Source: Verrucomicrobiota bacterium
Lineage (GTDB): Bacteria; Verrucomicrobiota; Verrucomicrobiia; Limisphaerales; UBA1096
Length of the DNA stretch: 38,064 nucleotides
Assembly: GCA_018674955.1 (NCBI GenBank)
Contig: JABGZB010000281.1
Span: forward strand, 1 to 38,064
Direction: 5' to 3'
The notes beneath the pieces were generated by a model. It searched no databases, was not told the origin of the DNA, and saw only the letters and a list, made by a program, of their open reading frames with translations. Below, piece by piece: positions 1,015 through 37,024 of this stretch. The first letter of the stretch is position 1, and every line of letters begins with the position of its first letter. The translations under genes and the position numbers were made by a program.

Positions 1015-2079
1015 GTGGGTTGGGGTAGTTTCAGCGGCGACGTGGATTCCGGCTTCGCAAAATACGACATCACGCAGGATTACGCCTGGAATTATGAAAA
1101 CGCGCCGGAGCCGGTTGGCGCTGCGGTTCCGAGCGTGGACGGTGAGTGGCTCTACTGTGGCGTGCCGGTTGATTCGCCGCTTGGCATTGCAGCCGGCCCA
1201 CTTCTCAACGGTAAGTGGCTGCTTTATTACGCCTCCCTTGGTTTCGATGTCCTGACTTACAAGACGGTGCGGAGTTGCGAGAGGCGCTCGTACGGGTTGC
1301 CGAATCTTCAGCCGATTGCATGGGAGGGTGGCGTGGTGCCTGCGGAGTTGAGTGTTGCCAGCGTGATGAACGGCAGTTGGGCGGTGTCGTTCGGCATGCC
1401 ATCGAAGCCGCCGAGCTTTTGGCGGGATGACGTGACGGCAACTCGCTCGCGCCTGGCCAAGGGCAAGTTCCTCTGCGTCTCCGTTGTTGCCACGGCTCAG
1501 GATGGTTGGTCGATCGATGACCTAGCTGCCGACTACGCGCAATGCGCCCGGTGGGCTGTCGAGAGTGGTGCGGACGGAGTGGAAGCCAACTTCAGTTGCC
1601 CCAACGTCAGCAGTGTCGATGGCCAGCTTTTCCTCAATCCAACCGACGCGGGGATCGTGGCGGCCCAGTTGCGTGAGGCGTTGCCGGACACGCCGCTGCT
1701 GCTCAAGGTTGGGCATATCAACAATCGGGAAACAGCGCACGCGCTGGTCGAGGTGGTTGCGCCGTCTGCTGATGCGCTGGTGATGGTCAATGGCTTGTCG
1801 GCGAAAGTGCGGCAACGCAACACCGAGCTGCTGTTTGAGGGCCAATGCCGGGGGATTGCGGGCGAGGCGATTCGCGAAACGACGCTGGAGCAGTTGGCTT
1901 TGTTTGACGGCTTGATCCGGGAGTTCGGGGTTGATGTGCGCTTGGTGGGGGTTGGTGGGCTTGGCCAAGCGGCGGATGTTCGGGCATGCCTCGATCGAGG
2001 TTGTGAGGCGGTGCAGTTCGCCACGGCTGCGATGCTGAATCCCGGTTTGGGCTTGGCCATTCGGCGGGAGGGGTTTTAA
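1015..2079 (+). CDS. Dihydroorotate dehydrogenase-like FMN-dependent TIM-barrel oxidoreductase (true start possibly GTG at 1042)
   Basis: Motifs GIAAGPLLN, GFDVLTYKTV, EANFSCPN (catalytic Cys loop), LLLKVG, VGVGG and AVQFATAAM are typical of the DHOD/DPD fold. Confidence 0.75.
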   Translation: MGWGSFSGDVDSGFAKYDITQDYAWNYENAPEPVGAAVPSVDGEWLYCGVPVDSPLGIAAGPLLNGKWLLYYASLGFDVLTYKTVRSCERRSYGLPNLQPIAWEGGVVPAELSVASVMNGSWAVSFGMPSKPPSFWRDDVTATRSRLAKGKFLCVSVVATAQDGWSIDDLAADYAQCARWAVESGADGVEANFSCPNVSSVDGQLFLNPTDAGIVAAQLREALPDTPLLLKVGHINNRETAHALVEVVAPSADALVMVNGLSAKVRQRNTELLFEGQCRGIAGEAIRETTLEQLALFDGLIREFGVDVRLVGVGGLGQAADVRACLDRGCEAVQFATAAMLNPGLGLAIRREGF

Positions 2080-2081
2080 TC

Positions 2082-2684
2082 GTGCCGATGATTCGACTGG
2101 GGCTCACGGGCGGAATCGGGATGGGCAAGTCCACTGCGGCCGAACTTTTGGCCAAGCGCGGCGCGAAGGTGTGCGACTCGGATGCACTTGCCCGAGAGTT
2201 GGTCGCACCCGGGCAACCGGCCTTGGCGGAGATCGTCGAGGCATTCGGCAGCGGCGTGTTGGTAAGGGATGGTTCGCTGGATCGCGCCAAGGTTGGTAAG
2301 TTGGTTTTCGGTGACTCGGCTGCCCGCGAAAAACTGGAGGGCATTTTGCATCCCCGCATTCGTGAGGCATGGCAGTCGCGGCTCGAGGAGTGGTCGGCGG
2401 CTGGCGAGCGGTTGGCGGTGGCGGTCATTCCGCTGCTGTTCGAGACGAAGGCCGAATCGAGCTTCGACAAGATTGCGTGCGTGGTCTGTTCACCGGAGTT
2501 GCAGCGCGAGCGTCTGCGCGCGCGAGAGTGGAGCGACGACCAAATCAGCAATCGGATTTCGGCGCAGATGGCGGTGGGTGAAAAAATCAAGCGAGCCGAT
2601 CACGTGATCTGGACCGACGGCACGATCGAGGCGCACGCCGCTCAGTGGGATGATCTGCTGTCGTCCTGGGACGTGGTGGACTGA
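2082..2684 (+). CDS. coaE: Dephospho-CoA kinase
   Basis: N-terminal GLTGGIGMGKST P-loop, plus D.LARELV, LEGILHPRI, IPLLFE and RI.AQM motifs. Confidence 0.95.
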   Translation: MPMIRLGLTGGIGMGKSTAAELLAKRGAKVCDSDALARELVAPGQPALAEIVEAFGSGVLVRDGSLDRAKVGKLVFGDSAAREKLEGILHPRIREAWQSRLEEWSAAGERLAVAVIPLLFETKAESSFDKIACVVCSPELQRERLRAREWSDDQISNRISAQMAVGEKIKRADHVIWTDGTIEAHAAQWDDLLSSWDVVD

Positions 2685-35600: not shown

Positions 35601-35929
35601 ACGCTTTTCAGGAGGCCGAATTGCCGTCGGTCTTCCTGCTCAGCCTGCGGGCGGCCGGTACCGGACTCAATCTGACGAGCGCCAGCTACGTGGTCATTTA
35701 CGACCCGTGGTGGAATCCAGCCGTCGAGGCGCAGGCCATCGACCGGACTCATCGGATCGGTCAGACCGCGACGGTGAACGCCTACAAGATGATCTCACCG
35801 GGCACCGTCGAGGAGAAAATTTGGGACTTACAGCAGCGCAAAGCCAAGACGGTATCCGACGTGCTCGGGGAAGACGGCTTCGCTAAGGGCCTCACGACGA
35901 ACGATCTCGAGTATCTGTTCTCGGATTAA
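32657..35929 (+). CDS. SNF2-family (SWI2/SNF2) helicase-like ATPase
   Basis: Motifs LRPYQ, GILADDMGLGKT, VCPASV..NW, DEAQFIKN, LTGTPIEN, LRQICCHP, VFSQF, AAGTGLNL and DPWWNPAVE.QA.DR.HRIGQ. Confidence 0.95.
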   Translation: MPRTAKKKKPVVSSAKASKYDAHHTVINNTYGDFADLRHQLSESKEDVAERAKLLQIFSSCTDSQRSWLLLEDYFNKLNLARKDFSQDDWWGSMAQTHGDTRLEDLALVFMKSGRSVPNELMAHANFTRFAEVEQAERDHQLFKGLEEWMFPPTPVHLDAPRAALRVVGRLILDTELPGLHKLGVEIHIIRPRTGDRVKTLDDMADLTMRAAHEQELFPSADWSFIRWSSGVRHDYDTEAELISLDGAELLKWLVQWGKSGRIDLDGEMKPIQFLGRIIEMEPHLEKAKSDLFFTHEVILPDNKTCSMSEVRFFAGDPTLALIGCEVFLLRNSPAPEVLGNWAKMKKASVSKLTHRLLTKLRKITTTNGVNWEQLCKTHEATPRFVFEMANDTVRLKLLAKSESDKSLWQWNGHEWVRGNSGKLLKPNKPEVLDDERLEAAIGWLKRLDWFTPEPGLWVGDSNPLFLESLHAAWPDKPDAEYLGDTEFKRLFLQPKRLKPKLVVRGSGIDWLSVSAEWEEEGLNLTERDLQQLAAASGNFVNLPDAGWVQLDQKAVQEAQEAMADLGVDGLSSVEQKVGLEQAAHLDEDGLAKFVPSSELEQLRGRLDEFEGVETTELPDGVCAELRPYQVEGFSFLCHLAKFKLGGILADDMGLGKTLQTLAWLLWLKTSRRKNAKTKPTLVVCPASVLHNWRRESERFTPKMKVLVLESGQARHNLRKRIPDYDIVVTNYSILRRDLDELAKFAFRAIVLDEAQFIKNPGAQVTKSVKELKADHKLALTGTPIENRMLDLWSIVDFVQPNYLGNQEHFTQVYDLKVSEKDENAARIGRRKLSAKLRPLLLRRVKKQVAKDLPDRIEQRLDCELPEEQRKLYLAELKRSREQVMKAVQQKGVAKSKMHVLAALTRLRQICCHPGLVGSDTESGKTDTLFELVEPLLEEGHKVLVFSQFVRMLQILEKECADRQMPTHMLTGETKNRQDIVNAFQEAELPSVFLLSLRAAGTGLNLTSASYVVIYDPWWNPAVEAQAIDRTHRIGQTATVNAYKMISPGTVEEKIWDLQQRKAKTVSDVLGEDGFAKGLTTNDLEYLFSD

Positions 35930-35959
35930 ACCACTACGCTTGGCCAATCGCTTGGCTGC

Positions 35960-37024
35960 CTAAAGTTTCTTGACGTGAAACTTCGGCTGGCTCCATTCGC
36001 TGCTTGGCAGTAACCAGCGAAAGATGACGCCGCCTTCGCGGTGGCTGGCAGTGTTCAGTTGGTTTGCTTCGCCGAATTCACGGTGCGCCACTACGATTCG
36101 GAACGACCCGTCCGCCGCCAGCTTCACCTGCGAATGGTTCAGGATGATTTTGAGGTTCACGAAATCACGCGACTCGAGCCAGCGGCTGCACAACTGCACC
36201 GACCAGTAACGGCACTCCGGCGCGCGCCCCTCCATGACGAGCGCCTCGTCTTCCTCCAGCTTGTACCACCCGCCGACGTACTCGTTGTCCGGTGTGGGGA
36301 ACAGGCTATCGAGTCCCTCCGCCGTGCTGTCGATGCTCACCGTGTTGGGCTGTTTCATCCACGCCTTTGAGGCCAGTTGCGTGGACTTGAAAGTGCGCGA
36401 CATGCTTTGGCTTAATGCCCGCAGTCGGTGGGTGATGCCCTCTACCGTCGGAGCGGGCGGCGGCGCGATGTCATCGAGCAACTGGATGTTCAACTCGGCC
36501 GGTTTTTGCCGGAGATCCGTGAAGTATTGCCGCGTCACCAGCGTGCGGGCGATGTTGTCCAGTTGAATCCAGTTTTTAACTCCGTCCGGCCGCTCGGCGG
36601 AAAGCACCAACTCGAAGCCGCCGTTGTCGTCAAACTCCATGTCCACATCGCAGACGTTGGCCAAAATACAGTTGGTCCGCCCGCGCATACCGTATAAACA
36701 AAAAGCCAAATACAACTCCTCGCCTCGCCGCCCATGGATGCGGTAGCGCAGTGCGGGATTCAACGTGGCTCGATGGTAGAGCGTGTCCGGGTTGTCCACG
36801 AAAAACTTCCGGATCGGCGACATGATCTGCACGAGGCTGGGATAGTCTGCTTCCTGTTCCACCTGGAATTCCGTCATGCCGACAAGAATGCGGGTTAGGA
36901 AACGATAGCCCTCGGCGCGCACCGTTGGGTCGTGTCCCTCGCTCAATGCGTCCACTTGTCCCGCCGCGTCCATCAGTTGCTCGGTCAGTGTTGCCCATGC
37001 CTTCGTCAGTTCGTCATTGGCCAT
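35960..37024 (-). CDS. DUF1214-domain protein
   Basis: Motifs AEGYRFL.R, DNPDTLY, YRIHG.RG, TRQYF.D, RYWSVQL...W.ES and DGSFRIVVAH...N.L.T..H..G...RW. It is coupled to the sulfotransferase gene. Confidence 0.75.
   Translation of the reverse strand: MANDELTKAWATLTEQLMDAAGQVDALSEGHDPTVRAEGYRFLTRILVGMTEFQVEQEADYPSLVQIMSPIRKFFVDNPDTLYHRATLNPALRYRIHGRRGEELYLAFCLYGMRGRTNCILANVCDVDMEFDDNGGFELVLSAERPDGVKNWIQLDNIARTLVTRQYFTDLRQKPAELNIQLLDDIAPPPAPTVEGITHRLRALSQSMSRTFKSTQLASKAWMKQPNTVSIDSTAEGLDSLFPTPDNEYVGGWYKLEEDEALVMEGRAPECRYWSVQLCSRWLESRDFVNLKIILNHSQVKLAADGSFRIVVAHREFGEANQLNTASHREGGVIFRWLLPSSEWSQPKFHVKKL

Follow-up and report, generated by a model that had tools for sequence, protein, structure and literature searches.

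The stretch of DNA analysed here (the window) comprises the 38,064 nucleotides of contig JABGZB010000281.1 from a Verrucomicrobiota bacterium (assembly GCA_018674955.1), and it is contig C400 of the genome that we label G000. Among its genes are those for a tetratricopeptide repeat (TPR) protein, an oxidoreductase, a prepilin-like protein, an aminotransferase, hisD and an SNF2 helicase, and within and between its genes lie copies of the palindromic octamer TTGGCCAA, which is the subject of this report. We counted 33 exact copies in the window, whereas dinucleotide-preserving shuffles (n = 100) averaged 0.96 copies and never exceeded 4, which agrees with an earlier sequence-only reading of the window that had set about 33 copies against the 0.5-1 expected by chance. 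According to our own open reading frame (ORF) calls, 22 copies are read in phase 1 (LAK or LAN), 7 in phase 2 (LGQ or VGQ) and 1 in phase 3 (PWPS), and 3 are intergenic. The earlier reading had proposed that the octamer is used in all frames and also stands between genes, and its examples were verified, namely LGQ at 1961, LAK at 2148, PWPS at 15832 and the copies at 7120, 7162 and 35940, which lie between genes in our calls. The two perfect 16-bp palindromes that it had pointed out, GCGCTTGGCCAAGCGC at 28717-28732 and CCGCTTGGCCAAGCGG at 30541-30556, are both exact, and the variants and half-sites that it had described as common are indeed so: the window holds 48 one-mismatch sites against 13 expected and, on both strands, 55 CCAAGCG half-sites against 6.9 expected, 22 of which fall within full sites. 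No Rfam family is present in the window. The copies are given below by position together with the coding sequence (CDS) in which they lie; no strand is assigned to a copy, the strand of each gene stands in brackets, G numbers denote other species genomes of the same genus, and these are called rich or poor by their content of the word, as set out further on.

1961..1968: TTGGCCAA, a 12-bp palindrome with its flanks; CDS 1015-2076 (+), phase 2, LGQ
2148..2155: copy in CDS 2082-2681 (+), phase 1, LAK
3544..3551: copy in a 12-bp palindrome; TPR-protein CDS 3451-5274 (-), phase 2, LGQ
3670..3677: copy in a 10-bp palindrome; CDS 3451-5274 (-), phase 2, LGQ
4766..4773: copy in CDS 3451-5274 (-), phase 1, LAK
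4912..4919: copy in a 10-bp palindrome; CDS 3451-5274 (-), phase 2, LGQ
5189..5196: copy in a 10-bp palindrome; CDS 3451-5274 (-), phase 1, LAK
7009..7016: copy in CDS 6486-7076 (-), phase 1, LAK
7120..7127: intergenic copy between divergent genes; the next copy is 42 bp off, which is four helical turns
7162..7169: intergenic copy; 5' flank AAGCGC, as at the copy at 7120
7794..22842: five ORFs forming an accessory block that is missing from the syntenic regions of G017, G013, G009, G032 and G007
9819..9826: copy in a 12-bp palindrome; CDS 7794-10472 (+), phase 1; accessory block
12065..12072: copy in CDS 10472-12115 (+), phase 1; accessory block
12267..12274: copy in the 3095-aa CDS 12212-21496 (+), phase 2, LGQ; accessory block
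15602..15609: copy in the 3095-aa CDS 12212-21496 (+), phase 1, LAN
15832..15839: copy in the 3095-aa CDS 12212-21496 (+), phase 3, PWPS; the next copy is 28 bp off
15860..15867: copy in the 3095-aa CDS 12212-21496 (+), phase 1, LAK
17093..17100: copy in the 3095-aa CDS 12212-21496 (+), phase 1, LAK
23295..23302: copy in a 14-bp palindrome; oxidoreductase CDS 22821-24212 (+), phase 1, LAK; kept in G017, G013, G009, G034 and G007
24756..24763: copy in CDS 24212-25114 (+), phase 2, VGQ
27508..27515: copy in a 14-bp palindrome; prepilin-like CDS 27484-28392 (+), phase 1
28717..28732: the perfect 16-bp palindrome GCGCTTGGCCAAGCGC; CDS 28402-29433 (-), phase 1, LAK
29952..29959: copy in CDS 29399-30085 (-), phase 1
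30397..30404: copy in the aminotransferase CDS 30085-31200 (-), phase 2, LGQ
30541..30556: the perfect 16-bp palindrome CCGCTTGGCCAAGCGG; aminotransferase CDS 30085-31200 (-), phase 1
30629..30636: copy in the aminotransferase CDS 30085-31200 (-), phase 1
31289..31296: copy in the hisD CDS 31207-32511 (-), phase 1
32228..32235: copy in the hisD CDS 31207-32511 (-), phase 1
33851..33858: copy in a 14-bp palindrome; SNF2 helicase CDS 32657-35926 (+), phase 1; CTGGCCAA in 9 rich relatives, TTGGCCAA in G017 and G014
34427..34434: copy in the SNF2 CDS; present in 12 of 13 aligned rich species, with other codons or LS[KN] in poor species
34574..34581: copy in the SNF2 CDS; present in 13 of 13 rich species, with L/I-S-K/R in poor species
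34880..34887: copy in the SNF2 CDS; present in 11 of 13 rich species and in G032
35940..35947: intergenic copy between convergent genes
36657..36664: copy in CDS 35963-37024 (-), phase 1, LAN

The accessory block at 7794-22842 holds 7 copies in 15 kb versus 26 in the window's other 23 kb. Its G+C is lower, at 0.51-0.56 across much of its length, and its products include an 893-aa and a 3095-aa protein without Pfam match, a protein with TSP3 repeats and a 548-aa protein whose C-terminal domain is Peptidase_S74 (endosialidase chaperone).

An iterated signal at the level of DNA

The assembly of G000 (4.04 Mb in 476 contigs of mean length 8.5 kb, 57.9% G+C, 88% complete) contains 3152 copies of TTGGCCAA, or 0.78 per kb, against 56 expected from a zero-order model. 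The word is the most abundant palindromic octamer of this genome, 5-fold above the next. Highly iterated palindromes of the type of cyanobacterial HIP1 are recognised as palindromic octamers with an enrichment of at least 15-fold, and we found 56-fold enrichment in G000, 92-fold in G009 and 50-fold in G017. Genes were called with our own caller, which uses ORFs and codon usage in place of a standard gene finder (2844 genes, 85.7% coding), and by these calls the density of the word is 0.77 per kb in coding DNA, 0.83 per kb in non-coding DNA and 1.08-1.34 per kb in true spacers. The 2673 coding copies are divided among the three phases as 1600, 927 and 146, and 481 copies are non-coding. When synonymous codons were shuffled within genes, which preserves all protein sequences (hence dipeptides) and the codon usage of each gene, 20 replicates gave a mean of 380 and a maximum of 408 copies versus the 2673 observed, which is a 7-fold excess, and the 481 non-coding copies compare with 8.8-44.8 expected under Markov models of orders 0-3. 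The sequence-only reading had held that coding alone does not account for the word, and both comparisons bear it out; it had also allowed that the enrichment might be confined to this contig or might vanish under a shuffle preserving codons or dipeptides, and neither is the case. Taken together, these results show that TTGGCCAA is an iterated signal at the level of DNA for which protein coding is no explanation.

The signal extends beyond the octamer. In G000, C occupies position -1 in 79% of copies, G position -2 in 57%, C position -3 in 55%, and G or C position -4 in 81%, and this flank information falls off outward and symmetrically on both sides. The genome holds 2023 copies of the 10-mer CTTGGCCAAG (0.5 per kb), 901 of the 12-mer, 495 of the 14-mer CGCTTGGCCAAGCG and 147 of the two 16-mers taken together; the full signal is a 14-16-bp palindrome, SCGC-TTGGCCAA-GCGS. 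The share of sites with the full 14-mer is larger in non-coding DNA (115 of 481) than in coding DNA (380 of 2671), which points to the long palindrome as the actual target, which coding constraint may trim. We also noted that 26 pairs of neighbouring copies are exactly 12 bp apart, such that their extended palindromes abut via AAGCGCTT, which is the fourth commonest palindromic octamer of G000 with 328 copies.

Gain, conservation and loss within one genus

The family to which G000 is assigned in GTDB consists of one genus with 26 species genomes, all of them metagenome-assembled genomes (MAGs) that are 59-93% complete. Using the 10-mer CTTGGCCAAG for counting and the same word reversed as the control, we found 20 of the 26 species to be rich, with 766-3286 copies (291-923 per Mb; control 4-19). 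G032 alone is intermediate (427 copies, 133 per Mb; control 7), and G001, G004, G006, G007 and G031 are poor (41-65 copies, 12-23 per Mb; control 1-4). The same word and flanks were found in G009, G017 and G032. We considered whether poor species use an alternate palindromic "dialect" and rejected it, as the top words of G001 are A/T runs and G032 retains TTGGCCAA. Across the order, which was sampled with 401 genomes from 166 genera and 86 families (G318, flagged as unpublished, supports none of our claims), no rich genome occurred among the 386 genomes from 85 other families, whose top count was 61 against a control of 14. The word is therefore lineage-specific, as the sequence-only reading had supposed, being rich in only one genus of those sampled. 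Family f37 (e.g. G216, G372, G385, G340 and G357) shows a mild excess of CTTGGCCAAG, with 23-51 copies versus 0-9 for the reversed control, which is far under the level of the genus studied here. Among viral contigs of IMG/VR, at least 119 stretches carry the 14-mer; the 80 listed have one 14-mer each, and 8 of these 80 have at least three octamers. The only listed viral locus near host density is L321 (13,670 nt), which has 8 copies of TTGGCCAA and 4 of the 10-mer (0.59 per kb) and shows weak translated similarity to G000 (27 high-scoring segment pairs over 1.7 kb, ~59% identity); it could represent either a provirus or phage of the genus or a piece of host DNA.

For a tree of the genus, SNF2 and HisD of 18 ingroup genomes were combined with HisD of 6 outgroups (LG+C20, IQ-TREE quick search, with support from the Shimodaira-Hasegawa-like approximate likelihood ratio test, SH-aLRT, only). 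The poor species G001, G004, G006 and G007 form a clade that is sister to the rich species G014 and G018 (SH-aLRT 100), and G032 falls near the base of the tree without a resolved placement. The poor clade is nested among rich species, and therefore the poor state is derived. The genus spans 40.5% to ~61% G+C, with 40.5% in G001, 51.2% in G032 and 57.9% in G000, and G+C at third codon positions (GC3) of SNF2 is 0.30-0.38 across the poor clade versus 0.69-0.85 in rich species. The zero-order expectation for the word is equal at 40% and 58% G+C (5.3 versus 5.5 per 400 kb), and therefore composition alone is no explanation for its loss. The low-G+C clade, nested in high-G+C species, is also without the competence genes ComEC, DprA and ComM; a collapse of G+C after loss of transformation or recombination is possible.

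Alignments of orthologous genes indicate how sites come and go. The SNF2 gene is colinear across 18 genomes, and its four motif sites vary by substitution only. At site 33851, the leucine codon is TTG in G000, G017 and G014 and CTG in nine other rich species, and at another site all 13 rich species have LAK with the motif where poor species have L/I-S-K/R. The aligned window genes contain 35 distinct sites; turnover between rich species is heavy, and many of the sites are one mismatch off in relatives. Comparing G000 with G017, a single species pair with 312 orthologue pairs at 82% nucleotide identity, we found that, given a conserved peptide, 99 of 119 phase 1 sites have an unchanged octamer, compared with 68% of all windows and 32 of 76 sites at which that peptide is spelled in another way; the corresponding phase 2 values are 46 of 59, 58% and 24 of 51. 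The motif is thus conserved beyond codon conservation in this pair, as is characteristic of words of the HIP1 type. In 296 orthologue pairs with the poor G001, peptide conservation extends to only 24% of the motif sites in phase 1, 23% in phase 2 and 11% in phase 3, versus 40%, 40% and 33% of all windows, and the orthologous proteins contain 275 LA[KN] and 158 [FLIV]GQ tripeptides in G000 versus 156 and 82 in G001. The word spells 178 of 303 aligned LA[KN] tripeptides (59%), although TTG makes up only ~21% of leucine codons. By these alignments, the word is maintained at silent sites and has entered genes at a certain cost in amino-acid replacements; the sequence-only reading had proposed a search of orthologues for such a cost, and the 24% versus 40% contrast with G001 answers in its favour.

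The density of the word depends on gene composition, with 0.28 per kb in the lowest GC3 decile and 0.90-0.97 per kb in the top half. Like an uptake sequence, it has about 1 copy per kb, is common to related species and is rarer in atypical genes and in the accessory block. All 15 one-mismatch variants of the 10-mer are enriched in G000, 3-45-fold, and none of these 15 is a depleted one-off precursor, which would be the signature of very-short-patch repair. The ratio of perfect to one-off words is 0.92 in G009, 0.61 in G000, 0.53 in G017, 0.29 in G032 and 0.13 in G001. The most enriched one-off variants of G032 are TTGACCAA (6.6-fold) and TTAGCCAA (4.7-fold), which is a signature of decay. A residue is left in the coding DNA of G001, with 28 copies versus 16.5 by synonymous shuffle.

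Helical phasing and DNA methyltransferases

Neighbouring copies are separated by gaps of 20-200 bp more often than expected (673 versus 423). Among the 1085 pairs that lie 15-320 bp apart, distances have a period of 10.4-10.5 bp (R = 0.214, Rayleigh p ~2e-22); R is 0.05 at 10.0 bp and 0.03 at 11.0 bp, and the coherence is gone by ~320 bp. At 10.5 bp, R was 0.236 for in-frame pairs within the same gene (n = 446), 0.187 for out-of-frame pairs within the same gene (n = 394, p ~1e-6), 0.215 for pairs with at least one non-coding member (n = 183, p ~2e-4) and 0.28 for pairs in different genes (n = 62). Ten control hexamer palindromes of similar abundance gave R of 0.008-0.087, and among 25 abundant octamers weak phasing was seen only in those with the half-site. 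The phasing was replicated in G009 (397 kb), in which 221 pairs gave R = 0.251 (p ~9e-7) with a best period of 10.5 bp. The samples from G017 (93 pairs, R = 0.204, best period 9.5) and G032 (16 pairs) are underpowered. An origin in the periodicity of amphipathic protein alpha-helices was rejected because out-of-frame, non-coding and between-gene pairs are phased too, and repeated elements were rejected because all 1085 intervals are distinct sequences. Taken together, we conclude that nearby copies tend toward one face of the double helix. From the symmetry of the extended palindrome and its phasing on one face, we infer that a dimeric protein may read the word in double-stranded DNA. Because copies are helically phased, nucleoid binding, which the sequence-only reading had listed among its options, is kept.

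GGCC and TGGCCA, both of which lie in the core of TTGGCCAA, are typical methylase targets, and the sequence-only reading had linked the word to such a methylase. This link found no support, as profile searches of the genus revealed no conserved methyltransferase or Vsr. The C5-methylase family PF00145 was present in only 2 of 26 genomes, one rich (G009) and one poor (G007), and the 88% complete G000 showed none of PF00145, PF01555, PF02086, PF02384, PF07669 and Vsr (PF03852). Among the five most complete rich genomes (83-93%), PF01555 and PF02086 were each found in 0 of 5, and PF02384 gave marginal 20-bit matches in 2 of 5. The S-adenosylmethionine-dependent methyltransferase of the window (28402-29433) belongs to PF10672, which we take to be the RlmI/RlmK rRNA type. 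Thus, no cognate orphan methyltransferase of the kind that accompanies HIP1 was found among known families, with novel enzymes and incomplete assemblies as caveats, and the published methylase model of cyanobacterial HIP1 is therefore without support here.

Competence genes and the interpretation of the word

Profiles for ComEC (PF03772), DprA (PF02481) and ComM (PF13541) each matched 14 of the 20 rich genomes and none of the 6 that are poor or intermediate. In comparison, the controls MutS and secretin were each found in 20 of 20 rich and 6 of 6 poor or intermediate genomes. A full-length ComEC query likewise found nothing in the five poor genomes. In rich G013 the gene order is VanZ-ComEC-ffh, and VanZ adjoins ffh in G001, G004 and G007; in G000, DprA lies between a gene for a 348-aa protein and NuoN, and the outer two adjoin in G006, G007 and G032. 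The absences in poor and intermediate genomes are thus clean deletions at every flank that could be checked. As a measure of background loss, 19 genes of G000 (~7%) are without counterpart in 150 intervals syntenic with G001, which comprise 252 anchors. A search of these 19 for a reader of the word found none with a recognisable DNA-binding domain, and 9 are without Pfam match. HHH_3 was rejected as a discriminator for ComEA, since it matches in both groups and the HHH_3 protein of G000 resembles protein K of type II secretion systems (T2SS-K), and secretin was rejected as a discriminator since all 26 genomes keep it. The secretin domain was found inside ORFs of 3900-4300 aa in G009 (C16), G013 (C15), G036 (C25), G032 (C63), G018 (C184), G006 (C44) and G007 (C18), which would be unusually large for secretin-bearing ORFs, and in G036 and G032 an HHH_3 (T2SS-K-like) gene lies ~8 kb from the secretin ORF on the same contig.

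We favour, at a probability of roughly 40%, the reading that the word is a transformation-linked signal that resembles an uptake sequence and decays after competence is lost. Its pattern is that of an uptake sequence because the word is driven into genes, conserved at silent sites, rarer in new DNA and genus-wide. DNA uptake or recombination had been among the options of the sequence-only reading, and the distribution of ComEC, DprA and ComM gives this option circumstantial support. The data above establish the signal with its anatomy, conservation, phasing and phylogenetic distribution, the gene deletions and the lack of methylases; the causal link to transformation, the existence and nature of a reader and its action at uptake or recombination are inferred. 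According to this reading, SCGC-TTGGCCAA-GCGS would have arisen on the stem of one uncultured marine genus of Verrucomicrobiota, and point substitution would write the word into genes and spacers, where it would be kept at silent and even at replacement sites. A dimeric reader, in or alongside the natural-transformation pathway, would prefer DNA that bears the palindrome, such that uptake or recombination would favour fragments with more copies, especially copies on one face, and molecular drive would spread the word. Deletion of ComEC, DprA and ComM would remove this drive from a lineage, and the word would erode by G-to-A and C-to-T changes. A more specific version, which we consider doubtful as a whole, would make the word a methylation-free palindromic sequence for uptake or self-recognition that is read cooperatively on one helix face; after deletion of ComEC, DprA and ComM in nested lineages the word would erode and G+C would fall by 7-17 points, and transformation with biased gene conversion would uphold both the word and high G+C.

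The established DNA uptake sequences (DUS) of Neisseriaceae and uptake signal sequences (USS) of Pasteurellaceae are asymmetric 9-12-mers that are read by a pilin (ComP) or another receptor and that depend on a working transformation pathway. Like them, TTGGCCAA occurs at ~1 per kb, lies in genes at a cost to the peptide and at less constrained positions, is rarer in recently acquired DNA and is common to related species. In contrast, it is a perfect palindrome where DUS and USS are asymmetric words, and no dialects were seen. Chi sites, which are recognised by RecBCD or AddAB, are asymmetric, co-oriented with replication and present at densities several-fold lower. The word resembles Chi as a short over-represented sequence that could act on incoming or broken DNA in recombination, but as a palindrome it is identical on both strands and carries no orientation, and hence shows no strand skew.

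Several observations weigh against a link to transformation. ComEC is cleanly deleted in the rich species G010, which also has no DprA or ComM; G010 has the lowest density (291 10-mers per Mb) and the lowest GC3 (0.69) among rich species. ComEC is only a remnant in rich G005, yet that genome has 687 10-mers per Mb, and none of the three was found in G011 (67% complete, 705 per Mb). The ComEC of G000 aligns with its orthologue in G013 (86% identity) over codons 1-340 only; past codon 340 there is unrelated sequence with a gene on the opposite strand (C104:11191-12763), and the remainder of ComEC is absent from the assembly, which may reflect either an insertion or rearrangement or an assembly join. 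In G017 the entire ComEC region is unassembled. Because ComEC was lost repeatedly in the genus, in rich species too, losing the competence genes does not by itself, or at once, entail losing the word: every word-poor genome is without the genes, and the converse fails, for which a lag between gene loss and decay would be an explanation. Furthermore, related genomes are not independent, and the series amounts to 2-3 independent events (the low-G+C clade, G032 and perhaps G010). The poor lineages also fell 7-17 points in G+C, which is a confounder, and erosion of the word could stem from some unrelated shift in mutation or repair, with loss of the competence genes coincidental. No candidate receptor was found, and no ComEA was recognised in the genomes profiled. 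Finally, to our knowledge, known uptake sequences are not palindromic, and we know of no 10.5-bp phasing in DUS or USS; this phasing suits a protein bound to the chromosome as well or better. Separately, the DprA match of G005 (C567:1790-2402) is split into two parts that lie in different frames (profile positions 2-58 and 53-209), which suggests that this gene carries a frameshift.

The transformation-linked signal ranks first, an architectural binding array second and biased repair third, and the three are not mutually exclusive. The array, which we think unlikely although it is the strongest rival, would consist of binding sites for an abundant nucleoid-associated or architectural protein whose dimers interact along one face, with poor lineages having lost or changed the protein and the loss of competence genes being coincidental. 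It would account directly for the sharp 10.4-10.5-bp phasing, which is seen in all pair classes and in G009 and, weak signals in half-site words aside, is not seen in control words, and for the excess of gaps of 20-200 bp, and the conservation at silent sites would suit selection in place. Like the sites of a nucleoid protein, nearby copies share one helix face with coherence that decays within ~300 bp, but such sites are usually degenerate rather than exact 8-16-bp palindromes repeated thousands of times. Moreover, an array would give no reason to expect ComEC, DprA and ComM to be lost from precisely those lineages that are poor, its complete abandonment in a nested clade would be unexpected of an essential set of sites, and no candidate protein was found for it: none of the 19 genes missing from syntenic intervals of G001 has a recognisable DNA-binding domain. 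The lower density in recently acquired DNA is compatible with either model.

More improbable is a process in which mismatch correction or gene conversion, biased but independent of methylation, turns near-matches into the palindrome, perhaps on recombination heteroduplex, and in which no function is read from the word. Consistent with such a process, sites arise by point substitution, with recurrent CTG-to-TTG change at one SNF2 site (G000, G017 and G014), turnover among rich species is strong, all 15 one-mismatch variants are enriched, and the word co-varies with G+C, as GC-biased conversion would have it; a bias acting on transformation heteroduplex would also account for the link to competence genes. 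However, strong very-short-patch correction should have depleted a one-off precursor, Vsr was not found in G000, MutS occurs in every one of the 26 genomes, poor ones among them, and biased repair gives no reason for the 10.5-bp phasing.

We regard as very improbable a classical highly iterated palindrome maintained by an orphan methyltransferase on the GGCC/TGGCCA core together with methyl-directed mismatch repair, the mechanism proposed for cyanobacteria. Cyanobacterial palindromes of this class co-occur with cognate methylases, and their mechanism needs a methyltransferase, according to the available text of Elhai (2015, PMC4390886). The incompleteness of the genomes and possible novel methylase families leave this model some room; against it stand the scatter of PF00145 over one rich and one poor genome, the lack of five methylase families and Vsr in G000, and the assignment of the methyltransferase in the window to PF10672. 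The likeness of TTGGCCAA to HIP1 (GCGATCGC) is close in other respects: both have a palindromic octamer core that is tens-fold over-represented, occur in all phases and in spacers, are conserved beyond codons, are lineage-wide with low-abundance exceptions and co-vary in abundance with competence genes. The differences are that TTGGCCAA is another word, half A+T, in another phylum, and with information extending to 14-16 bp; that no cognate methyltransferase was found here, whereas the effect of HIP1 on transformation depends on methylation; and that its period is 10.5 bp over 15-320 bp, in contrast to the 18-94 kb given for HIP1 in the accessible part of Xu et al. (2018, PMC5861425). In the available text of Kamoku and Nielsen (bioRxiv 10.1101/2024.09.10.611283), HIP1 raises transformation efficiency in Synechococcus PCC 7002 in a methylation-dependent manner, and a Chi-like action is suggested for it; that of Rodriguez-Cruz et al. 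(2026, PMC13756078) describes a co-variation of HIP1 abundance with proteins of the pilus and of competence, and both sources now propose a transformation-enhancing role for HIP1. In the genus studied here the association with competence genes is seen again, with no methylase found.

Scarcely credible is an artefact of coding (the LAK or GQ peptides, or codon pairs) or a mobile palindrome: 60% of coding copies are indeed in one phase, TTG GCC AAR, and LA[KN] is a common peptide, but the excess of 2673 over 380 survives a shuffle that keeps peptides and codon usage, the word occurs in each of the three phases, non-coding DNA has it at equal or higher density, and 59% of aligned LA[KN] use the word despite the ~21% share of TTG, while elements of the repetitive extragenic palindrome (REP), bacterial interspersed mosaic element (BIME) or miniature inverted-repeat transposable element (MITE) type were rejected because 85% of copies lie in CDS and the colinear SNF2 alignment has no insertions at sites.

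The sequence-only reading knew of no such signal described for this group, and our literature search, in which supplementary tables lay outside, likewise found no published description of TTGGCCAA as an iterated palindrome; the matches listed have the string in primers and oligonucleotides, and those listed that also speak of palindromes are unrelated. No paper was found that joins HIP1, palindrome and Verrucomicrobia, and "DNA uptake sequence" and Verrucomicrobia occur together in no title or abstract. New here are the methylase-free state, the 10.5-bp phasing and the series of losses within a genus. For three decades, the highly iterated palindromes of cyanobacteria have been a standing problem, and only lately have they been tied to natural transformation via methylation. 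The value of the present case is that it comes from another phylum and that the lack of a detectable methyltransferase separates the word from methylation. In addition, the sharp 10.5-bp phasing points to a physical reader on one face of DNA, and nested lineages without the word and without transformation genes allow gains and losses to be polarised. In practical terms, the 16-mer could serve as bait for the reader, and the word as a marker for binning the genus and for spotting recently acquired DNA. If the more specific version of our reading is true, this genus would be a natural before-and-after experiment on the purpose of iterated palindromes. If the link to transformation holds, uptake-like self-tags would be far wider than the two established proteobacterial families, and transformation would be connected to the upkeep of G+C content.

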